A program made the position numbers and the translations under genes. A DNA stretch of 34,774 nt from Candidatus Woesearchaeota archaeon (GTDB lineage Archaea > Nanobdellota > Nanobdellia > Woesearchaeales > JACJVV01), in assembly GCA_047603135.1 (NCBI GenBank), contig JBLKOW010000001.1:1-34774 (forward strand), read 5' to 3'. Under the pieces are notes generated by a model. It was given only the letters and a program-made list of their open reading frames with translations, ran no database searches and was not told the origin of the DNA. This document shows positions 6,995 through 34,773 of this stretch, piece after piece (position 1 is the first letter of the stretch; each line of letters opens with the position of its first letter).

Positions 6995-7145
6995 AATTTC
7001 ACCAGATTTTGTTGTTTGTTCAAGAAATAGAGGACTGTTTATAAAGGTTTTTGTGGTGTATACGCAAAGAAGTCTAGTTTACGCGTCAAAAATAATGTAA
7101 TTTTGGCTGGAAAACCAACTAACTCATTCTATTAAGCCCAAAAAT

Positions 7146-7236
7146 TCGAATGTAAAAAGTCAACATGCACGGCGAATTTATGTGTTTCTTACTAAGAAAT
7201 ACATCGCCTCGATGGGCAAAGTAGACTTTCTACTTA
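7146..7236 (-). repeat. Structured interspersed repeat, short form, copy 5 (inverted orientation)
   Basis: Its reverse complement aligns with 32388-32480 and with the 3' module of the long copies (GGCAAAG...GGCGAT-hairpin-TTCGCCGTGCA...GACTTTTTAC). CAAAAAT occurs on both flanks (7139-7145 and 7237-7243). Confidence 0.85.
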
Positions 7237-7334
7237 CAAAAATGCATAAACTATTTATATCGCAGTAATATATGCTGGAATAGTATAATATAGATAGAGA
7301 TAAAAAATCACATAAAACTATATGGGGGGATATT

Positions 7335-11798: not shown

Positions 11799-12284
11799 AT
11801 GAGCATAACATTAGGAACAGTATATGCAATTCTTGGCGCTGCAACAGCAATGGGATTTGCAGGGATTGCAACTGCAATCGGTGTAAAATCAGCAGGCGTT
11901 GCTGCAGCAGGTGCAGTTGCTGAGCGAAAGGAGAATTTTAAGAGTGCACTTGTTTTACAAGCACTTCCTCAAACGCAAACAGTTTATGCATTCATTATTT
12001 CACTTTTGATAATGATGGGAGCAGGACTTCTTGGTGGAGGAGCACGTGAACTTACCACATGGCAAGGATTATCTATGTTTGGTGCAGGACTTGCAGTAGC
12101 ATTAACCGGTATTTCAGCTGTGTTTCAGGGATTAGTTTCTGGTGCAGGTATTGTGGGATGTGCAAAGAATGAAAGTGCATTCGCTCCAAGTTTAATCTTT
12201 TCAGGGCAGTGTGAGACTCCAGCTATCTTTGGATTCATTGTCGCATTGATATTACTCGTTGTTGGAATTGGGGTGCTTGGTTAA
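11799..12284 (+). CDS. atpK: A-type ATP synthase proteolipid subunit K, duplicated (4 TM) form
   Basis: 161 aa forming two hairpins. Helix 2 carries ALPQTQTVYAF (Gln where the carboxylate normally sits). Helix 4 carries SGQCETPAIFGF (Glu retained). The SD-like GAGGTG precedes the ATG. Confidence 0.9.
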   Translation: MSITLGTVYAILGAATAMGFAGIATAIGVKSAGVAAAGAVAERKENFKSALVLQALPQTQTVYAFIISLLIMMGAGLLGGGARELTTWQGLSMFGAGLAVALTGISAVFQGLVSGAGIVGCAKNESAFAPSLIFSGQCETPAIFGFIVALILLVVGIGVLG

Positions 12285-12839
12285 ATGCGCATGATTGGAA
12301 ATCCTGAACGATTGAAGAAGAGTATTAGTATGCATTATGCTAAAATTCTTAAGGAATTTGAGGAGACTGAGCGTACAAAGGCTGCACGCGATATTGCTGA
12401 AATTCATGATAAGTTTGAGAAACAACTCATTGCAATTCAGAAGCAGACTGAGGATGAAGAAAAATCAGCATACAGAACAACCATTTCTGCACGAACAATC
12501 TCATCAAAGAAAGCATATGAAGGTATTCGTGAACGTTTAATAGGTGATGTTTTCAGTGAAGCACTTAAGAAAGTTCCTCATGTTTTAACAAGTGAGGAAT
12601 ATATAAAAAAGGTGCAAAAAAATCTTGAGTCAACGAACTATGATAAAATAGAGGGTGGATACTCAGAATATGGTAGTCATTTTCCAGGTATTGTAATTAA
12701 TCATAAATTAAAAGGGATAATTGCACATGCAGGAAATGCGTACTTTGATTTTACATACACCTCGTATATTTTATCAAGTAAACAAGAGATTCGTCAAAAG
12801 ATTATCGCACTTATTTCAAATAGAAAAGGAGGAATCTAA
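12285..12839 (+). CDS. atpE: A-type ATP synthase subunit E
   Basis: 184 aa with an N-terminal coiled coil and a C-terminal globular part. Its position in the operon fits subunit E. Confidence 0.75.
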   Translation: MRMIGNPERLKKSISMHYAKILKEFEETERTKAARDIAEIHDKFEKQLIAIQKQTEDEEKSAYRTTISARTISSKKAYEGIRERLIGDVFSEALKKVPHVLTSEEYIKKVQKNLESTNYDKIEGGYSEYGSHFPGIVINHKLKGIIAHAGNAYFDFTYTSYILSSKQEIRQKIIALISNRKGGI

Positions 12840-13927
12840 TGTTAGCAGAAACAGGGATTATTGTTGGGGGAACTGCAGTTGCAGCGGGTACACTTGCAAT
12901 AGTTGCCTATAAAAACTTACAAGAAGGTTCTTATTTGTATGTGAACGCACGAATTGCATCACGCTCGTCAGAGCGTATTTCGCAGCAGAAATACGTACAA
13001 CTTGCTCATCTTTCCCATCTAAAAGATGTTGTTTCTGCACTCCGTGAGACATCATATTATCCTTATCTTGAACAAAATAATGGACATGATGTTCTTTCAT
13101 ATGATAAAGCACTTGAAGAAGCTCAGATTCATGCATTTGAAGAAATGAAGAAGTTATCTCCTGCACGACTTCACCCAGTTCTTGATGCATATGGTCTTCG
13201 TTTTGAAACACCCTTCTTGAAAGCAATTTTCAGGTCATTATTTACCAAAAAAGTGCTTGATACAAAATATCTTCCGACCGCAGGAGTAAATCCATTATTT
13301 GTTCAGCGTTTAAGTACAGCAAAAACTCTCGGTGATTTAGCAGTTATTTTACATAATAGTCCTTATCAAGGCTTGCTCGATACTTCATACCCAACAATTG
13401 AAGCGTTTGATGTCGCACTTGATAAACATGTGTATTGTATTTTAGAAAAATCATTATCAAAGCTACGCACATTCGACGCACAGTCATTGCGTGATTTGTT
13501 TGTGTATGAAAACTCAATTGATAATATCTTATCATTAATTCGTATTCGTCTTAGAGGAATTGATTGGAAATTAGTTACTGGTGAGACTGTTGGTTTTTAT
13601 GATGTATATGGCGTTTTACTTGACGATGCTCTTCGCGCGCCATCTATGAAAGCATTTGTCGAACTCTTTAAAGATACACCGCTATATGATACATTAAAAC
13701 ATACACTTGCAACAGCTGGAGAAAAAAATGTCCGTGCCTATGAGCATGCGTTAATCTCTGCAAAAATAAAATATGTTAATGATAATAATGTAGGTAAATC
13801 AACAAGTCCTTATTCAATCTTTGCGTATCTTATGCATATTGGATATGAGCGTCGTAATTTACTCGTCGTTGCAAAAGCCGTTACTGGTGGAATTCCAAAA
13901 GAAGATGTTCAGGAGTTGATAGTATGA
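12839..13927 (+). CDS. atpC: A-type ATP synthase subunit C
   Basis: 362 aa, helical. Assigned by operon position and size. Its start overlaps the atpE stop by 1 nt. Confidence 0.8.
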   Translation: MLAETGIIVGGTAVAAGTLAIVAYKNLQEGSYLYVNARIASRSSERISQQKYVQLAHLSHLKDVVSALRETSYYPYLEQNNGHDVLSYDKALEEAQIHAFEEMKKLSPARLHPVLDAYGLRFETPFLKAIFRSLFTKKVLDTKYLPTAGVNPLFVQRLSTAKTLGDLAVILHNSPYQGLLDTSYPTIEAFDVALDKHVYCILEKSLSKLRTFDAQSLRDLFVYENSIDNILSLIRIRLRGIDWKLVTGETVGFYDVYGVLLDDALRAPSMKAFVELFKDTPLYDTLKHTLATAGEKNVRAYEHALISAKIKYVNDNNVGKSTSPYSIFAYLMHIGYERRNLLVVAKAVTGGIPKEDVQELIV

Positions 13928-14247
13928 GTCAAAATATCTCAGCAACAAACACTGCATCGCATACACGATTAATTGTAATTTCACATGAAGAATTTGCACT
14001 AGGAATGCGTCTTGCAGGAGTGCGAGAGAGTTATGCAGTAAATAATAAAGAAGAAGCATTAAAAGCATATCAAACAATAACACCTGATGCGTTTGTAATT
14101 GTAACTGAAGGTATAACTGAGTTAATTCCAGAGCTAAAAGAGCTTGCTAACGTAGTTATTTTTCCAGACAAAGTAGGTGACTTTTCAAACATATCTGATT
14201 TAAAGAGAATTACACGAATCGCAATTGGTTCAGAAATTGAATTATAA
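13924..14247 (+). CDS. atpF: A-type ATP synthase subunit F
   Basis: 107 aa with LIVISHEEFALGMRLAGV, typical of subunit F. ATGA overlap with atpC. Confidence 0.8.
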   Translation: MSQNISATNTASHTRLIVISHEEFALGMRLAGVRESYAVNNKEEALKAYQTITPDAFVIVTEGITELIPELKELANVVIFPDKVGDFSNISDLKRITRIAIGSEIEL

Positions 14248-14266
14248 TAATGTATGAGGGTACACA

Positions 14267-16486
14267 ATGACAAACGAAAATAGATTACAAGGATCAATTA
14301 AAAGCATTGCAGGGCCACTAGTAGTTGGAAGAGACATGCAAGGCGTAAAAATGTATGATTTAGTTAAGGTTGGAAAACTAAAGCTAATGGGTGAAGTAAT
14401 TCAACTGCGAAATGACACTGCATATATTCAAGTCTATGAAGATACATCTGGTCTTACTACTGGTGAAGAAATTGTCTCAACAGATATGCCATTAAGTGTT
14501 GAATTAGGTCCTGGATTACTTGGAAGCATTCTTGACGGTGTTGGACGCCCGCTTCCTATTATTGCAGAGAAAACAGGAACATACATTGCTCGTGGTGTGG
14601 AAGCTCCCACGATAAATAAAGAAAGACGATATGAATTCTCTCCTTCTATTAAAGAGGGTGATGATGTTGTTCCTGGTCAAGTTCTAGGTTCAGTAAAAGA
14701 AACCGACCTCATTAAACATTACATAATGGTTCCTGTTGGTGTTGTTGGTCGTGTTAAAGACATAATTCCTGGTACATGTACTGCAAAGGATGTTATTGCA
14801 CGAATCCAAACTGCAGGAGGCACTCATGAAATTACATTAGCACAGTGGTGGCCGGTACGTCGCTCACGTCCTGTAAAGAAAAAGCTTGACCCTGCAGAAA
14901 TGCTTGTATCAGGACAGCGTGTTTTCGATACTTTCTTTCCGTTAGTTAAAGGTGGTACTGCAGCTATTCCTGGTCCTTTTGGTTCAGGGAAAACAGTATC
15001 TCAGCATCAGCTTGCAAAATGGGTTAATGCTGATATTGTTGTCTACATTGGTTGTGGTGAGCGTGGAAATGAGATGACTGAAGTACTCAAAGAATTTCCT
15101 GAATTAATAGATCCTAAGACTGGTAAACCACTTATGGAGCGAACAGTTCTTATCGCAAACACAAGTAACATGCCAGTTGCTGCGCGTGAAGCGTCTATTT
15201 ATACAGGGATTACTATTGCAGAATATTATCGTGACATGGGATATGATGTAGCATTAATGGCAGATTCAACATCGCGCTGGGCTGAAGCACTTCGTGAAAT
15301 GTCCTCTCGTCTTGAAGAAATGCCTGGTGAGGAAGGATATCCTGCATACTTATCTTCTCGTCTTGCACAATTTTATGAGCGTGCAGGTAAAGTGGTAACT
15401 CTTAATAATAAAAATTCATCATTATCGATTATTGGTGCAGTTTCTCCTCCTGGTGGAGACTTTTCAGAACCAGTCACACAAAATACCTTGCGTATTACCA
15501 AAGTATTCTGGGGGCTTGATGCAAAACTAGCATACAAGAGACACTTCCCTTCAATTAATTGGTTGACTTCATACTCGCTTTATAGCGATAAATTACATAG
15601 CTTTTACGAAAAAGTTGATGCAGACTTTCCTGATTTAATAAACACGGCAATGTCATTGCTTCAAAAAGAATCCGAACTACAAGAAATTGTTCAGTTAGTT
15701 GGTCCAGATGCACTTCCTGATAATGATCGGCTCGTGCTCCATACCGCGCGAAAGCTACGTGAAGATTATTTACAACAGCACGCTTTTCATGATATTGACT
15801 CCTATTGTTCACTTGAAAAGCAACATATGATGCTTAAAGTAATTATTGATTATCATAATGTACTCAATAGCTTTATCAAAAAAGGATCTAAGTTTGTAAC
15901 ACTTGTTGATGAAAAGATTGATGAGCAAATTGCACGAATTAAATATCAAAAAGATAGTAAAAAATATGTTGCTAATATTTATGATATGATTGAGAAAACA
16001 CGTCCAAAGTCTGTAAGTGAGCGAAAAGATGAAACAGATAAAGAAGGACGAGATGCACAGAAAAAAGCAGATGAGAAAAAAGAGCAAAACGCGCAAAATG
16101 AATCTCGAAGTAACACTCGCAAAGAAACTAAAAAAGAAGTCGCCACAGAAACTAAAAAAGAATCGACTCGAGCGCACTCAGCGTATTTATCAAAAGAATC
16201 TGCTAAAACATCTACTCGTAAGAGTGTAAGTAGTAATAGTAGAAAAAGTGCTGCTAAAAAAGCAAAAAATAAGCTACGTAAAAATCCAAAAAAACGTACA
16301 AAAGTAAAAAAAAGTATGGCACAAAACGCTTCTAAAAAAGTAGCAAAAAAGCCAGTAAAGCGCTCAAATTCGCAAAAACCATCAAAATCGCAAAGAAGCA
16401 ATTCAAAACGTAAAACTGCAGGAAAAAGTTCTGCACGAAAGCGACCACTGTCGCGCAAGCCTAAATCAAGGAAGGTGAAATCATGA
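14267..16486 (+). CDS. atpA: A-type ATP synthase catalytic subunit A with an unusual Lys/Ser/Arg-rich C-terminal extension
   Basis: It has the Walker A motif [17 protein letters not shown], and [16 protein letters not shown]. The homologous core ends near residue 575-585. About 160 low-complexity basic residues follow before the stop, which overlaps the atpB start (ATGA). Confidence 0.95.
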
Positions 16487-17859
16487 TTAAAGAATATACT
16501 TCAGTAACAAACGTAATCGGCCCTTTGGTCGTAGTAGAAGGCGTTAGTAATGTTGCGTACGGTGAAATTGTTACCATCAGAACTGCAAATAATGAACAAC
16601 GTATGGGTCAAGTTCTTGAAATAGGTGAAGGTCGTGCTATTGTGCAAGTCTTTCAAGGAACAACTGGAATTGACACACGTAATACGCGTGTAAGATTCAC
16701 TGCTGAAACCATGAAGATCAATGTAAGTCCTGATATGCTTGGTCGTGTTTTTAGTGGTGTTGGAAAGCCACTTGATGGACAGCCTGATGTTATTCAAGAA
16801 GCACGGCTTGATGTAAACGGTAATCCGCTTAATCCATCCTCACGTGAATATCCTTCTGAATTTATTCAAACAGGAATCTCAGCAATAGATGTTATGAACA
16901 CATTAGTTCGTGGACAAAAATTACCTATTTTTTCTGGCTCAGGTCTTCCTCATAATAAACTTGCAAGTCAGATTGCAAAGCAAGCGCGCGTTCTTGGGAA
17001 AGATGAACAGTTTGCAGTAGTATTTGCGGCTATGGGAATTACTTTTGAAGAAGCACAATTCTTTAGGAGTGAGTTTGAAAAAACAGGTGCAATGAATAAT
17101 GTTGTCATGTTTCTTAATTTAGCAGATGATCCTGCAATTGAGCGAATAATAACCCCAAGAATGGCACTTACTACAGCAGAATATTTAGCATATGAAAAAG
17201 ATATGCATATCTTAGTAATCTTAACTGATATGACTAATTATTGTGAGGCGCTACGTGAGATTTCAGCAGCGCGAAGTGAAGTTCCTGGAAGACGAGGATA
17301 TCCTGGATACATGTATACTGACTTAGCAGCACTCTATGAGCGTGCAGGAAAAGTAAAGGGAAAAACAGGTACATTAACACAAATGCCAATTATATCGATG
17401 CCTGATGATGACATTACGCATCCCATCCCTGATTTAACAGGATATATCACTGAAGGACAATTTGTACTTAGTCGTGATTTACATAGAGGGGGAATTTATG
17501 CTCCTGTTGATGTTCTTCCATCGCTGTCTCGGCTCATGAAAAAAGGAATTGGTGAAGGAAAAACACGAAATGACCACGATGATGTTTCTAACCAATTATA
17601 TGCTGCGTATGCACGAGGAAGAGAACTTCGCGACTTAGTTGCAGTTATTGGTAAGGAGTCCCTTGCAGAAGTTGATCGAAAGTTCCTTGACTTTGCAGAA
17701 GAGTATGAACAAACATTTGTTAATCAACCTTACACTGAGGATCGTGCTGTCACGGAAAGTCTTGACAAGGCATGGGAATTACTGCGAAAACTTCCTCGCA
17801 GTGAGCTGAAGCGTATTAGTGTTGAAATACTTGACGAATATTATAATAAGGAAAATTAA
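16483..17859 (+). CDS. atpB: A-type ATP synthase subunit B
   Basis: 458 aa with [51 protein letters not shown], and ITEGQ. Confidence 0.95.
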
Positions 17860-18885: not shown

Positions 18886-19623
18886 ATGAAAAATGAATTA
18901 GGTAGTTTAGTTAGTTCTGGAATAGACCCTGAGAAAGCAGAGGCACGTGAATTGTGGAAACGCGGGCATTTGAATGGTTCGTATTCAAACCAAGATCCAG
19001 GATATAAGTTTGCGCGTCGTGCTGAAAAACATGGTTCACCACGAACATATGTTCCTCCAGCAGAAAGACAAATACCTGTGGAAGATGGACATGGAAACTC
19101 TACGAGTGGAAATAAGTTTGATGAACAGTGGTCAGGAGATGATAAAGTATCGCTTGATGAAGTTTTATCAGCAGTTGATTCTGAATCGGTATTTAACGCA
19201 CGTGTTCAAGCAGTGTATGAGGGCGGTGTTCTAGATATCGGTTATGATGCAGATTCACGCGTTATGGAAGTATATGGTGATGCACCTCTTTACAACTTAG
19301 CACTCTTTTTAGGAGATAGTAAAAATGTTTCAGAGGTAGTTGTGCATCATAATGGTGAAGAAAATCGTCTTTCATATGATAAAAAACGCGATGTAATCAG
19401 TCTTAATGGAATGGAAATGTTTTGTCCTCATGATCCAGATAAGCCAATTAACTCAAGACAAGTACATGCAGTTCAGATACCTGGAATGGAAAGAGTAAGT
19501 CTTGAGGCACTTGAAGGAAATGGTCATTATCATCCAGAGATTGAATTCGATGATTTATTGGCAAAACCTGAGACGATGGAACGGCCAAGCACTGATGAAA
19601 TGACTCGTGTGTATAGAGATTAA
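18886..19623 (+). CDS. Hypothetical protein
   Basis: 245-aa ORF, acidic, with no recognisable motif. Its stop codon lies inside the TTAATTAG direct repeat that borders repeat copy 1. Confidence 0.55.
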   Translation: MKNELGSLVSSGIDPEKAEARELWKRGHLNGSYSNQDPGYKFARRAEKHGSPRTYVPPAERQIPVEDGHGNSTSGNKFDEQWSGDDKVSLDEVLSAVDSESVFNARVQAVYEGGVLDIGYDADSRVMEVYGDAPLYNLALFLGDSKNVSEVVVHHNGEENRLSYDKKRDVISLNGMEMFCPHDPDKPINSRQVHAVQIPGMERVSLEALEGNGHYHPEIEFDDLLAKPETMERPSTDEMTRVYRD

Positions 19624-19627
19624 TTAG

Positions 19628-19868
19628 TAAAATCTGCTTTTTCCACCAGTGTGTTTTTACATGCCTGGCTACGTCTGTGCATGTTCACGCGCGGCATAGT
19701 GGAAAAAGCAGGGTCTGAGAAAACCGACCAAGCCGTAGGCGAGCATGCCTCCAGTCTCTGACTGGTGGTGTCGGTTTTCGATTGACAAATCGACTTTGCC
19801 CTTTGAGGCGATGTGTTTCTTGTCAAAGAAACACATAAGTTCGCCGTGCAAGTTGATTTTTTACGTGC
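19628..19868 (+). repeat. Structured interspersed repeat, long form, copy 1 (complete)
   Basis: It aligns with 29074-29310 and 30706-30995, and its 3' module aligns with 32388-32480 and complement 7146-7236. It has multiple internal helices, including a perfect 13-bp pairing (19634-19646 with 19699-19711). It is flanked by the exact 8-bp direct repeat TTAATTAG. Confidence 0.9.
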
Positions 19869-19985
19869 TTAATTAGCTTTTTATTTTCTTTCTTTTATTC
19901 TTTATTCTAACCTAGTATTAACTATGCATTTTATTCCATAACTAATATAAATAATGAGCATTTGGTTCCATTCTGAGGTGAATAA

Positions 19986-28143: not shown

Positions 28144-28881
28144 TTGCTCATAACCATTATTGCTGGTTTATCAACAGCCCTAGGTGGATTATTTCCACTT
28201 TTCTTTAAGAATTTTAATCGAAAGATTTTGTTTTTCTCATTAGGAATGTCAGCTGGTGTGATGGTATATATCTCATTTGTGGAGATGATTCCTGAGGCAA
28301 TACAGGAAGTGGGTTTTACCCTAACAAATATTGCATTTTTTGTAGGAATCATTTTTATGATGGTTTTAGACTTTTTAATTCCTCATAAATATATTGCAGA
28401 AAATAATGTCTCAGCTGAAGATCAAAAAAATAATAAATTTGATCGTGCAGGAAAGTTTACTGCACTTGGTATTGCTATTCATAATTTTCCAGAAGGTATG
28501 ATTGTTTTTATGAGTGCTATGATTGATATTAACTTAGGAATTGTTCTTGCAATTGCAGTGGCTATTCACAACATTCCTGAGGGTATTGCCATTGCAGCCC
28601 CCATCTATTATGCAACAAAGTCTAAGATAAAAGCATTCATGTACTGTTTTTTAGCAGGAATCGCCGAGCCTGCTGGTGCACTTGTTCTCGCTTTATTCTT
28701 TATCAATTATTTTAATCCATTTATTTTAGGTTTATCTCTTGCATTTGTAGCAGGCGTTATGATATTTATTAGTTTTGACGAGCTATTACCTATTAGCTTT
28801 AAAGAAAACCATGACCATATAGCAACTGCAGGCATATTCATAGGGATGCTTATAATGGCTATAACTTTATTATTCTTGTAG
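28144..28881 (+). CDS. zupT: ZIP-family zinc transporter ZupT
   Basis: 245 aa with paired HNFPEGM and HNIPEGIA metal-binding motifs. The N-terminus LITIIAGLSTALGG parallels ZupT. The start is apparently TTG. Confidence 0.85.
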   Translation: MLITIIAGLSTALGGLFPLFFKNFNRKILFFSLGMSAGVMVYISFVEMIPEAIQEVGFTLTNIAFFVGIIFMMVLDFLIPHKYIAENNVSAEDQKNNKFDRAGKFTALGIAIHNFPEGMIVFMSAMIDINLGIVLAIAVAIHNIPEGIAIAAPIYYATKSKIKAFMYCFLAGIAEPAGALVLALFFINYFNPFILGLSLAFVAGVMIFISFDELLPISFKENHDHIATAGIFIGMLIMAITLLFL

Positions 28882-28903
28882 AGTTATATCTATTAAATTA
28901 TTG

Positions 28904-28965
28904 AAAATCTCGCATTCGAGATTTGAATGGGGATTCAAATACCCCTCACTTTAGTGCGAGATTTT
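28904..28965 (+). repeat. Mini stem-loop element 1 (62 nt, AAAATC...GATTTT termini)
   Basis: The 11-bp closing helix pairs 28904-28914 with 28955-28965. Two mutually exclusive local hairpins form at 28905-28924 and 28921-28940. The GGGG loop (28929-28932) is complementary to CCCC (28942-28945). Confidence 0.7.
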
Positions 28966-28972
28966 TAATTCC

Positions 28973-29053
28973 AAAAATCCGACTCAATCGTGAGTCTGTA
29001 ATACCCCAACATTTATGTTGGGGATAGGACGAACAACCAAGAGTCGGATTTTT
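28973..29053 (+). repeat. Mini stem-loop element 2 (81 nt, AAAAATCCGAC...GTCGGATTTTT termini)
   Basis: The perfect 13-bp closing helix pairs 28973-28985 with 29041-29053. It has an apical 8-bp hairpin (29004-29011 with 29016-29023). The closing helix resembles the AAATCGAC/GTTGATTT helix of the main family. Confidence 0.7.
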
Positions 29054-29073
29054 GTTATTTGCAATCTAAGTAA

Positions 29074-29310
29074 GTAAAATCTGCTTTTTTCACCTGTGTT
29101 TTTTTACATGCCTGGCTACGTCTGTGCATGTTCACTGGTGGTGTAGTAGAAAAAGCAGGGTCTGAGAATACCGACTGAGCCGCATACAAGCATGCCATCA
29201 GTCGGGTGAAAATCAAAGACTTTCAGCGTACCAGAAATTTCATTTCTGTGTATATGACTGGTGGTGTAGGTTTTCGATTGACAGTTTACTTTGCCAAGTG
29301 GAGTTTTTTC
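29074..29310 (+). repeat. Structured interspersed repeat, long form, copy 2 (3' hairpin module missing)
   Basis: It aligns with copy 1 and copy 3 from GTAAAATCTGC to CTTTGCCAAGTGGAG and then diverges. It carries the 52-nt expansion arm also present in copy 3. Confidence 0.85.
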
Positions 29311-29431: not shown

Positions 29432-30709
29432 ATGTATGATAAAAAAAGGCTTGCACTCTATTTTGAAGATACTAAAGTAGTTGTCAAAGACTCTATTGAG
29501 AGAAATCTTAAGCTACCTTCTTCAAAGAGTATTGTTTCATTAATTGGTGCACGAAGAACTGGCAAAACATATCTTTTTTATCAAAAGATTGCTACGCTTC
29601 CAAAAGAACAAGTTATTTTATTAGAATTTGAAAATCCGGTTTTATCGAGGGTAACTGTTGATGAATTTGGTGAGATTATCTCGCAGTATGTGTCACTTTA
29701 TAAAGCGTCATATGATAAAAAGTTATATATTTTTATTGATGAGCCACAAGTACTCCATAACTGGGAGATTGGTATACGATATTTGCATGATACTTTTGAT
29801 TGTGAATTGTATATAACTGGGTCTTCATCGAAACTTTTAAGTAAAGAAATTGCAACATCACTTAGGGGAAGAAATATTTCATTTTATTTATATCCTCTTT
29901 CTTTTGTAGAATTTTTAAGATTTAAAGGAGAGGGTATTATGTTGCCATTAGATACAAAGAAAAAAGGTTTTGTCCTAAATCTATTTAGGGAGTTTTTATT
30001 GTATGGTGGTTTTCCACAAGTTGTTCTTGCTGAATCGGAATTAGAAAAGAAACAAATACTTAAAAATTATTATGACCTTGTTGTATTCAAAGATATAGTT
30101 GACAGGTATAATTTAAAAAACACGAATCTTATTAGGTATCTTATAGAATATGTTGTATCAGCAAATACAAAAGTAATTAGTATTCATAAATTATTCAAAA
30201 CATTGCAATCACAGGGTTTTAAAGTTGCAAAAAATACTCTTTATGACTATTATAGTATTCTTGCTGATGTTTTTTTCATAGTGTCGCTAAAAAAACATTC
30301 ATTTTCAGTTCGAAGGCAAGAATTATCTTTTGAAAAGCCTTTTCTTATTGATGTTGGTTATATGTCCTTATTCTCGATGGAAGATTATGGAAAAAGACTT
30401 GAAAATGTTGTGTGTGTTGAGTTACAAAGGAGGCGTGGTGTACATGATTCCATTTTCTTTACATCTGACAATTCTTTTGAATGCGACTTCCTCATAAAAG
30501 AAGGTGCAAAAATAACGAAAGCAATCCAAGTCTGCTACGAACTAAATGATGATAATGAAAAACGTGAAATTGCAGGGTTAGTAGAAGCATGCAAGACTTA
30601 TAAACTCAAAGAAGGTTTGCTTCTTACCTACGACCATGAAGACTCATTTCAAAAAGATGGCATTACCATTGAAGTAAAACCTGTCTGGAAATGGTTATTA
30701 AGTACGTAA
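29432..30709 (+). CDS. AAA+ superfamily ATPase (COG1373 / DUF4143-type)
   Basis: It has Walker A GARRTGKT and Walker B LYIFIDEPQ, with the size and C-terminal region typical of archaeal DUF4143 ATPases. The ORF track starts at GTG 29426. ATG 29432 fits the TATA spacing. Confidence 0.8.
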   Translation: MYDKKRLALYFEDTKVVVKDSIERNLKLPSSKSIVSLIGARRTGKTYLFYQKIATLPKEQVILLEFENPVLSRVTVDEFGEIISQYVSLYKASYDKKLYIFIDEPQVLHNWEIGIRYLHDTFDCELYITGSSSKLLSKEIATSLRGRNISFYLYPLSFVEFLRFKGEGIMLPLDTKKKGFVLNLFREFLLYGGFPQVVLAESELEKKQILKNYYDLVVFKDIVDRYNLKNTNLIRYLIEYVVSANTKVISIHKLFKTLQSQGFKVAKNTLYDYYSILADVFFIVSLKKHSFSVRRQELSFEKPFLIDVGYMSLFSMEDYGKRLENVVCVELQRRRGVHDSIFFTSDNSFECDFLIKEGAKITKAIQVCYELNDDNEKREIAGLVEACKTYKLKEGLLLTYDHEDSFQKDGITIEVKPVWKWLLST

Positions 30710-30995
30710 AATCTGTTAATACACTAGAGTGTTTTTACATGCCAGACAACATTTGTGCATGTTCACTGGTGGTGTAGTGGAAAAAAGCAGGGTTTGATAA
30801 AACCGACCGAGCAGTGGGAGAGCATGCCACCAATCCGATGAAAATAAAAGATTTTCAGCGTACCAGAAATTTCATTTCTGTGTGTATGGCTGGTGATGTC
30901 GATTTTCGATTGACAGTCTACTTTGCCAAGTGAGGCGATATTTCTTAATTTCACTAAAAAAATGTACTCGCCGTGCAAGTTGACTTTTTACGTTC
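30706..30995 (+). repeat. Structured interspersed repeat, long form, copy 3 (complete, 5' part diverged)
   Basis: It aligns with copies 1 and 2 and includes both the 51-nt expansion arm and the 3' hairpin module. The ATPase stop codon TAA (30707-30709) lies inside its first nucleotides. Confidence 0.9.
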
Positions 30996-32362: not shown

Positions 32363-32387
32363 TGCTTATTATGAAATGTACTATACA

Positions 32388-32480
32388 CAGCGAGTAAAAA
32401 GTTTGCTTTGCCTTTCGAGGCGATATGTTTCTTGATAAAGAAACATATAAATTCGCCGTGCAAGCTTGACTTTTTACGTG
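32388..32480 (+). repeat. Structured interspersed repeat, short form, copy 4
   Basis: GCGAGTAAAAAGT...ACTTTTTACGTG inverted termini enclose the conserved CTTTGCC-GAGGCGAT-hairpin-TTCGCCGTGCAAG module. CTATACA occurs on both flanks (32381-32387 and 32481-32487). Confidence 0.9.
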
Positions 32481-32551
32481 CTATACATAAAAGATAAATA
32501 GTACATATTATAAAATTGGCTTTATACTGAGATTAAAAGTTTTTATTAAAC

Positions 32552-34668: not shown

Positions 34669-34773
34669 GCCCTTGTGGTGTAGTCCGGCCAATCATTTTG
34701 GATTTTCGTGGCGAAGAATCAAACTTCTCGCCGAAAACATCCAAAGACTCGGGTTCGAATCCCGGCGAGGGCA
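34669..34773 (+). tRNA. tRNA-Glu(UUC) with a 30-nt intron at the canonical 37/38 position
   Basis: Hand fold: acceptor GCCCTTG/CGAGGGC; D arm GGTGTAGTCCGGCCAATCAT, typical of archaeal tRNA-Glu; anticodon stem TTGGA/TCCAA with loop TTTTCG|intron|A (anticodon TTC at 34705-34707); 4-nt variable loop; T arm TCGGG-TTCGAAT-CCCGG; discriminator A. The intron (34709-34738) contains its own GGCG...CGCC hairpin. CCA is not encoded within the window. Confidence 0.85.

Follow-up and report, generated by a model that had tools for sequence, protein, structure and literature searches.

A previously uncatalogued family of intergenic hairpin repeats, probably mobile, in a Candidatus Woesearchaeota contig

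A five-copy repeat family between the genes of the window

The 34,774 nucleotides of contig JBLKOW010000001.1 analysed here (hereafter the window; assembly GCA_047603135.1, Candidatus Woesearchaeota archaeon) carry between their genes five copies of a structured repeat, three of them long (c1, c2 and c3) and two short (s1 and s2). The genes of the window include those for ribosomal protein L44e and eIF2-alpha, an A-type ATPase operon and a DUF3467-GrpE-DnaK-HD-DnaJ cluster, as indicated by a Pfam scan of 30 open reading frames (ORFs) from which five ORFs of the ATPase operon (11799-17859) were left out. The DnaJ encoded in this cluster has its nearest relatives, at 65-70% identity, among proteins that are labelled Woesearchaeota as well. 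Copy c1 lies between an orphan ORF of 245 amino acids, which has no Pfam match and no homologue outside its own species, and an ORF with a PP-binding (acyl carrier protein (ACP)-like) domain, in agreement with the gene neighbours named in a first-pass annotation that had been made from the letters alone. The relationship of c1 to two other long and two short copies, which that annotation had reported, was confirmed for all five, with c2 running from 29073 to ~29300 and c3 occupying 30706-30995; the stems that it lists are likewise present, and the coordinates of the features are collected in Table 1.

Copy c1, a block of 257 bases (19620-19876), is bounded by the inverted termini GTAAAATC and GATTTTTTAC and by two exact copies of TTAATTAG, as had been claimed. 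The upstream orphan gene ends in a TAA stop codon (19621-19623) that falls within the left TTAATTAG, and the final base of this repeat is also the G of the terminal GTAAAATC, an arm homologous to the left arm of the short copies (GTA[A/G]AAAGTC). Between the termini lie two extra hairpins, modules A and B, followed by the core module. The stem that closes module A (19634-19646, CTGCTTTTTCCAC, the reverse complement of 19699-19711) and that of module B (19719-19728, GAAAACCGAC, with 19770-19779) are both perfect; the inner pairing of 19748-19756 with 19760-19768 is imperfect, holding at 8 of 9 positions with one T.T. The core of c1 runs from CTTTGCC-CTTT-GA-GGCGA through an apical stem-loop to TCGCC-GT-GCAAG, followed by the right arm GATTTTTTAC and a 4-nt extension, GTGC, and is recognised both by the covariance model of the family, R1 (19782-19864, 75.3 bits, E = 6.6e-17), and by nhmmer (E = 2.3e-16).

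Copy c2 is cut off inside the core motif past ACTTTGCCAAGTG, so that the right arm and the 3' third are absent, and the core of c3 (30909-30991) scores 56.3 bits with R1. The short copies are flanked by direct repeats of their own, CTATACA in s1 (32381-32387 and 32481-32487) and ATTTTTG in s2 (CAAAAAT on the plus strand; 7139-7145 and 7237-7243), and s2 occupies the divergent spacer between the L44e and DoxX genes. Copy s1, which lies between convergent genes, is nested in a 16-nt inverted repeat (32369-32384 and 32498-32513; TTATGAAATGTACTAT and ATAGTACATATTATAA) and appears to have landed in an older hairpin, because the enclosing repeat pre-existed. A copy of the type II subfamily described below (that on L024) is also enclosed by an inverted repeat, of 11 bp. 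A preference for palindromic targets was rejected, since flanking inverted repeats are no longer than those of controls (p = 0.24).

Table 1. Positions of the repeat copies and their parts (window coordinates unless a locus of the related genome is named)
Feature	Position	Strand	Description or basis
Left direct repeat TTAATTAG of c1	19620-19627	+	Sequence; cognate-flank statistics
Left terminal arm GTAAAATC of c1	19627-19634	+	Pairs with 19855-19864 (GATTTTTTAC)
Module A of c1, extra hairpin	19634-19711	+	Closed by a perfect 13-bp stem; long copies only
Module B of c1, extra hairpin	19713-19786	+	10-bp stem GAAAACCGAC/GTCGGTTTTC and inner hairpin
Core module of c1, conserved family unit	19787-19868	+	Model R1, nhmmer
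Right direct repeat TTAATTAG of c1	19869-19876	+	Sequence; cognate-flank statistics
Long copy c2	29071-29300	+	Modules A and B; B with a 49-nt extra segment
Long copy c3	30702-30995	+	Both termini complete; apical stem of core degraded
Short copy s1	32381-32487 including repeats	+	Core 32394-32477, stem extension 32390-32481; R1 91.6 bits
Short copy s2	7139-7243 including repeats	-	Core 7152-7233; R1 85.8 bits
Apical variant	L013:6555-6706		Arms and internal motif normal; 97-nt unrelated structured insert in place of the apical stem-loop
Type II subfamily	L006:298-368, L004:4532-4601, L024:2046-2115		Different outer stem

Copies in a related genome and signs of insertion

The family extends beyond the window, as the first-pass annotation had anticipated: pattern and covariance-model searches found further copies in GCA_964581515.1 (CAZOOV01), a metagenome-assembled genome (MAG) from a relative of the window's organism (its DnaJ is 67% identical to that of the window, and syntenic genes share 66-70% nucleotide identity). 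When the conserved 3' pattern was searched in one genome per species, all 12 matches fell in this MAG, on 8 contigs. The matches are limited to the ~85-nt 3' module, which corresponds to the short form, at 67-83% identity; the MAG copies average 82% identity among themselves, and cores are ~74% identical between window and MAG, compared with 66-70% for coding DNA. Together with one variant whose apical part is replaced and three type II copies, the MAG loci (L003-L014 and L024, covering ~8% of the genome) hold at least 16 copies, all of which, the variant and type II included, are recovered by a profile and by R1. Type II copies have the outer stem GTAT[A/G][C/T]TGG/CCA[A/G][C/T]ATAC, an apical stem that starts ATGA...TCAT and a higher G+C content (0.46-0.54), and they show compensatory changes among themselves. 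The insert of the apical variant marks the apical position as a second place at which extra sequence is tolerated; this copy lies between direct repeats of 9 bp or more (TTAAAGCAT; TTAAAGCATT by eye), which stand unequally far from it, at 9 and 21 nt. The MAG is labelled 'uncultured Methanosarcinales archaeon', its DnaJ and the DnaJ neighbourhood group with Woesearchaeota-labelled proteins, and one of the two records seems to bear an incorrect taxonomic label.

An exact-pattern scan of the JGI metagenomes gave no match to the long-form 5' module or to the core pattern, which is weak evidence, because a JGI contig of the related MAG's species (L023) exists and either the collection or the method must be incomplete. 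Neither the core pattern nor module A was matched in viral contigs, and the one viral match to the module B junction pattern, in GC-rich coding DNA, was put down to chance. A BLAST search of plasmids and phages with c1 returned no match, and a protein search for further copies with a 68-aa ORF inside c1 returned no candidates. The DnaJ loci of other relatives (L020-L022, L026 and L027) contain no copies, and at ~3-21 kb each they are uninformative on absence.

The two copies of TTAATTAG at c1 had been likened to a target-site duplication, and they behave like one, because other copies of the family have differing repeats of 7-9 bp of their own. An exact direct repeat of at least 7 bp (7-9 bp) lies no more than 16 nt from both ends in 7 of 18 copies, compared with 5 of 306 non-cognate flank pairs (1.6%; binomial P = 8e-9), and the longest word shared by cognate flanks has a mean length of 6.9, against 5.4 for non-cognate ones (permutation p = 5e-5). 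The repeats differ from locus to locus (TTTTCTA, TTTTCCTTT, AACCTAAT, GTGAAAAG, CTATACA, ATTTTTG and TTAATTAG), and with the 4-nt extension included nearly all of the repeats border directly on the element at one end at least, leaving 0-3 further bases at the opposite end. At c1 the pair matches at 8 of 8 positions as a direct repeat and at only 6 of 8 as an inverted one, and a reconstructed empty site would consist of the end of the orphan gene, a single TTAATTAG and CTTTTTATTTTC.

All 19 copies examined for gene context are intergenic, with divergent, convergent and tandem spacers in proportions of ~5:3:10, as random intergenic insertion predicts, and with no orientation bias; within the window, 4 of the 5 copies follow co-oriented ORFs, and each of the three long copies points the same way as the genes beside it. 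The copies are 84-294 nt long, and the ORFs within them are short, mutually out of frame and without homologues. Empty sites, a prediction of the first-pass annotation, were found in relatives. Specifically, the spacer downstream of MazG holds s1 in the window and is empty at the orthologous site in the MAG (L012), the MAG has a copy upstream of an Na/H exchanger gene (also L012) where the window has none, and the spacer upstream of L44e holds s2 in the window and no element in relatives. No empty allele from the same species was seen among public contigs with the orphan or the ACP gene, all of which stop inside the element: Logan contigs from seven runs (SRR32456828-84; L001, L002 and L015-L019) break 34-55 nt into c1 or at the apical hairpin near 19827, which indicates that the element fragments short-read assemblies of this organism.

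We consider it probable, at roughly 0.6, that the family consists of non-autonomous foldback elements, palindromic over their whole length, that resemble MITEs (miniature inverted-repeat transposable elements), and that c1 is a composite derivative of such an element. The copies form a dispersed family of short, non-coding repeats with inverted arms at their termini, flanking duplications that differ between loci, non-orthologous positions in two genomes with presence or absence at individual sites, an exclusively intergenic location and no conserved ORF, a combination that corresponds to features by which MITEs are recognised. MITEs are common in archaea, occurring in 20% of genomes in a census of 8,220 (PMC11602168). 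Among the four identities put forward in the first-pass annotation, the evidence favours a MITE and goes against two others, a palindrome-associated transposable element (PATE) and, for the long form, a novel structured non-coding RNA (ncRNA). The family was previously uncatalogued; its kind, the MITE-like palindromic elements of prokaryotes, is already known, and it is not a new kind of RNA.

According to the MITE-like reading, the transposing unit would be a ~92-bp hairpin-forming segment with imperfect inverted-repeat arms. A transposase encoded elsewhere in the genome than on this contig, presumably of the DDE type, would bind the arms and mobilise the element in trans, by a cut-and-paste or copy-in mechanism, and insertion into AT-rich intergenic DNA by a staggered cut would leave, upon repair, a direct duplication of ~8 bp. 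The long form, in which modules A and B (~150 nt) separate the left arm's initial six bases from the remainder of the element, may have originated by nested insertion or internal duplication, and this composite would have been copied at least three times (c1, c2 and c3). The insertion of c1 would have fallen precisely on the orphan gene's stop codon, which the TTAATTA(G) duplication would have kept intact. A gene for a DDE_Tnp_1 (IS4/IS5-type) transposase stands beside the DnaK cluster of a more distant Woesearchaeota genome (L027:4967-5896; GCA_047602755.1), so such insertion sequence (IS) elements exist in the group; as a partner of the present family this element was rejected, its ends being without similarity to the hairpin arms.

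Conservation of the hairpin and decay of the long form

The basic unit of the family is a ~92-nt hairpin; a short copy consists of nothing else, and in the long copies it forms the 3' third. Its core, GTA[A/G]AAAGTCAGCTTT-GCC-N4-GA-GGCGA-(apical stem-loop)-TCGCC-GT-GC-AAGCAGACTTT[T/C]TAC, is lengthened to ~92 nt by a 4-nt stem extension (G[T/C][A/G]A ... A[T/A][A/G]C). The left arm, (G)TAAGTA[A/G]AAAGTCAGCTTTGCC..., and the right arm, ...GCAAGCAGACTTT[T/C]TACATAC, are imperfect inverted repeats, and the terminal inverted repeats GTA[A/G]AAAGTC...GACTTT[T/C]TAC occur with the 4-nt extension in all complete copies. Across 14 short copies the hairpin is 98.4% paired, with compensatory changes at 10 of 32 pairs; none of 500 shuffles reaches these values, and slid partners are 41-49% paired. 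Outer-stem and apical-stem variants combine in mixed fashion, which points to several independent events. The asymmetric internal motif GCC-N4-GA-GGCG...CGCC-GT-GC is common to both subfamilies, although the outer and apical stems of type II are unrelated to those of the other copies, and one type II copy has a compensatory change from G-C to A-T in the central helix (helix 2).

The internal loop GCC-N4-GA / GT-GC is a candidate protein-binding site. A kink-turn, the L7Ae-binding motif with a three-nt bulge followed by tandem sheared G.A/A.G pairs, was rejected, as there are 5 nt in the bulge here and an invariant T/U, not A, at the 1n position. Direct reading of the internal loop also led us to reject H/ACA, C/D box and bulge-helix-bulge (BHB) motifs, and a hammerhead was dismissed with CUGAUGA in 2 copies only and no GAAA.

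Comparison of the junctions indicates that a long copy is a short unit whose left arm is split after GTAAAA. The material at the split consists of module A, a 78-nt hairpin closed by the 13-bp stem, and module B, a hairpin that measures 74 nt in c1 and 123 nt in the other two long copies; in c1 the inserted block has AAATC at both sides. The module A stem is degraded in c2 and c3, and over c1-c3 the two modules show 0 compensatory changes, ~14 broken pair cells and an unfavourable covariation term (+3.0). This decay without compensation, the truncation of c2 and the loss of the apical stem in c3 make the long copies look like decaying derivatives rather than a conserved RNA, and are what a selfish element would be expected to show in its dead copies. 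It is the ~92-nt 3' hairpin that evolution has conserved, the long form being a derivative.

The extra 49-nt segments of c2 (29203-29251) and c3 (30835-30883) are partly complementary to the left end of the element and resemble the right arm of module A, which suggests internal partial duplication, not foreign DNA. Copies c2 (truncated) and c3 (complete) have the same orientation, are 83% identical over 235 nt and bracket a single AAA_14/DUF4143 ATPase gene, whose final codons and stop codon (30707-30709) are supplied by the left arm of c3; a composite transposon made up of c2, the ATPase gene and c3 is not supported, the outer flanks having just a 4-bp CTAA in common. Directly upstream of c2 (28898-29060) stand two more strong hairpins, H1 (~28900-28969; stem ATTGAAAATCTCGCA/TGCGAGATTTTTAAT, inner GGGG...CCCC, pseudoknot possible) and H2 (~28972-29054; stem AAAAATCCGACTC/GAGTCGGATTTTT), with a joint fold of -66.5 kcal/mol (z = -7.7). 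The block 28870-29080 has no credible Rfam match, with only sub-threshold noise at E up to 10, and neither hairpin has a further copy in the window or the loci; their A-run and T-run feet are similar to the ones on modules A and B (AAAATCTGC, AAAACCGAC). With H1, H2 and c2, the whole spacer from the ZIP to the ATPase gene is a string of hairpin modules.

That the long form might be a free-standing structured ncRNA gene, with a three-way junction closed by the terminal stem and possibly a pseudoknot, gains some appeal from the fold of c1 as RNA, which is very stable on the plus strand (-98.5 kcal/mol, z = -7.5) and on the minus strand (-85.1 kcal/mol, z = -5.8), with 0 of 200 shuffles equally good on either strand. 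The G+C content of c1 (0.46, compared with ~0.33 in its surroundings) and the shared orientation of the three long copies with their flanking genes also fit such a gene. We nevertheless regard this explanation as highly improbable, given the uncompensated decay of modules A and B, the loss of the 3' third from c2, the 49-nt insertion in domain B of c2 and c3, the lack of a consistent orientation to genes among the copies as a whole, and the absence of the long-form modules from the related-MAG loci and the metagenome and viral collections searched. The crossing pairing proposed between 19660-19673 and 19734-19747 matches at 11 of 14 positions, and the pseudoknot is unsupported, because this pairing rests on a repeated palindromic GCATGC and shows no covariation in c2 and c3. 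As the first-pass annotation had supposed, no RNA family can be assigned: a search of Rfam 15 with the whole window at the gathering threshold returned only a tRNA, and c1 and c3 searched at E up to 10 returned only microRNA-model noise well below threshold. The tRNA call (34669-34773) spans 105 nt for a 71-position model at 45.2 bits, ARAGORN found no tRNA anywhere in the window, and the call is probably an intron-containing archaeal tRNA that ends one base short of the contig end.

Several observations weigh against the MITE-like reading. The distance that separates the direct repeat from the conserved hairpin is variable (0-6 nt on each side, and 21 nt once); sequence conservation does not reach the outermost bases, as it usually would in a DDE element; and intact duplications are found in just 7 of the 18 copies, c3 having none. 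The left TTAATTAG of c1 (TTAATTA-G) aligns with CTAAGTAAG in c2 and TTAAGTACG in c3, and since it overlaps sequence shared by c1-c3, part of it may be element or preferred-target sequence rather than duplicated target. An autonomous partner with matching termini was not found in the DNA examined (the window and ~8% of the MAG genome); the 30 window ORFs scanned contain no transposase, integrase or reverse transcriptase domain, as had been noted before, and no transposase is among the 25 families listed for 69 MAG-locus ORFs. The hairpin, with its near-complete pairing and its 10 compensatory pairs at a mean identity of 82%, is also far better preserved than a neutral dead MITE predicts: there are ~0.5 broken pairs per copy, against ~3-4 expected if 7 intact duplications in 18 copies correspond to ~6% neutral change per site (an estimate). 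The apical stem is preserved as well, although a transposase that binds double-stranded DNA has no obvious need for it. This preservation may reflect selection on the folded form, arm-to-arm conversion or rapid turnover from a diverse pool of active copies.

If selection on the folded form is responsible, the family may have spread by transposition and its resident copies may now be maintained by the host as structural elements of mobile origin, a possibility that we consider unlikely. A host protein would recognise the folded hairpin, as read-through RNA or as single-stranded DNA (ssDNA), via the loop GCC-N4-GA / GT-GC, and the hairpin could serve, for instance, to mark 3' ends, to confer stability or to signal termination on either strand. 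Such maintenance would fit the pairing and its shuffled and slid controls, as well as the preservation of stems over duplications (~7 times better by estimate, if the duplications decay neutrally) in copies that have diverged to 82% identity within one genome. It would also fit the common motif and the compensatory helix-2 change in subfamilies with unrelated stems, the higher identity of cores than of coding DNA between window and MAG, and the presence of a hairpin followed by a T5-6 run at the end of both strands. The copies, however, have no orientation bias relative to neighbouring genes, no internal promoter and no conserved flanks; 5 of 19 stand in divergent promoter spacers, positions at which neither a 3' end nor a terminator would be meaningful, and the distribution over spacer classes has the look of chance. 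G.U exceeds A.C by 5 to 2, too slight an imbalance to single out a transcribed or functional strand, the loop is not a canonical kink-turn, and diverse active masters or arm-to-arm conversion could yield the same covariation without any function for the host.

Pairing conserved over sequence would also be explained if the hairpin were the single-stranded substrate of a structure-specific recombinase or HUH transposase, in the manner of integron attC sites, of repetitive extragenic palindromic (REP) elements with their REP-associated tyrosine transposases (RAYT) or of IS200/IS605 ends, with the enzyme seeing the folded strand and its extrahelical bases (a bulged T and the N4-GA bulge). Consistent with this notion, covariation extends over the entire hairpin, in which conserved bulges keep fixed positions, the asymmetry of the motif makes it strand-specific, the elements begin GTAG or GTAA as REPs do, the cores fold as ssDNA (-15 to -23 kcal/mol, z -4 to -8), and the placement of window copies after co-oriented ORFs is cassette-like. 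We judge it less likely still than maintenance by the host. The systems named make no target-site duplications, whereas duplications of 7-9 bp occur here; RYYYAAC and GTTRRRY boxes are absent; the MAG copies are solitary, spread over 8 contigs among housekeeping genes in either orientation; at 84-92 nt the unit exceeds the size of REPs; and the DNA examined revealed no gene for a Y1/HUH or tyrosine recombinase.

Beyond being dead MITEs, the hairpins might form a class of structure-selected mobile hairpins in DPANN archaea, in which a putative protein, a transposase or a host factor, reads the folded strand via the asymmetric loop and the pairing of resident copies is under selection. This proposal, which we advance as a doubtful one, would explain why the same loop occurs in two subfamilies whose stems are unrelated, why copies that are 82% identical are 98% paired and why duplications decay and stems do not. 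If true, target duplication and dependence on a hairpin would come together in one mobile element, which, to our knowledge, has not been described for attC, REP/RAYT or IS200/IS605.

Comparison with known systems

The genomes of DPANN archaea are very small and streamlined, and little repetitive DNA is usually expected in them. Five copies in 35 kb, one of which supplies the stop codon of a gene, suggest that small mobile hairpins shape intergenic regions and gene ends in DPANN archaea, and the interest of the family rests on this host, on the high local density of copies and on the conservation of structure with a fixed asymmetric loop. It also provides a compact natural setting in which to ask if palindromic MITEs stay folded through selection, arm conversion or the turnover of active copies, and R1 can be used to mask or annotate its repeats in related MAGs.

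Readings of the family as PATEs, as REPs or as attC sites each fail at least one of the defining features tested, and a reading as terminators alone fits poorly with the copies in divergent promoter spacers. Integron attC sites, which have been reported in archaeal MAGs, resemble the present elements in being imperfect palindromes of 55-140 nt that follow co-oriented ORFs and conserve structure over sequence, with extrahelical bases and a variable apical part; they differ in that the termini here are GTAAAAAGTC and GACTTTTTAC rather than R'' (RYYYAAC) and R' (GTTRRRY), and in that the DNA examined holds neither arrays nor an integrase but solitary copies with duplications. REPs and the bacterial interspersed mosaic elements (BIMEs) that are associated with RAYT share with the family, as do PATEs, an intergenic hairpin recognised by structure, a GTAG-like 5' end and compensatory evolution of stems. 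REPs, however, are 20-40 nt long, often stand as inverted pairs and have no target duplication, and were rejected as an identity for a solitary core of 84-92 nt with duplications. PATEs are defined by subterminal hairpins and insertion 3' of a fixed tetra- or pentanucleotide, without terminal inverted repeats or target duplications. The inverted termini and 7-9 bp duplications found here, left flanks without a fixed tetranucleotide and the lack of a Y1 transposase in the DNA examined argue against the PATE-like IS200/IS605 derivative suggested in the first-pass annotation.

Closer parallels are found in the enterobacterial repetitive intergenic consensus (ERIC) elements, also called intergenic repeat units (IRU), and in the Correia elements (neisserial miniature insertion sequences, NEMIS). 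Both are intergenic imperfect palindromes of ~100-150 bp that form long hairpins when transcribed, exist in short and long size classes by virtue of insertions at fixed internal points, and keep their pairing across diverged copies. They are bacterial (Enterobacteria and Neisseria), have documented effects on transcripts (RNase III/E sites, promoters) and duplicate only TA (Correia, and ERIC in Yersinia) rather than 7-9 bp. With the MITEs of bacteria and archaea, which include SM1-SM4 of Sulfolobus and those of haloarchaea, the family has in common a non-coding length of ~90-290 bp, inverted ends, target duplications, dispersed intergenic copies in a narrow taxon and the absence of a transposase of its own. 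It departs from them in that the bases beside the duplication are not conserved and no partner IS was identified, and in that here, in a small-genome DPANN host, the whole element is a covarying hairpin with a fixed asymmetric internal loop.

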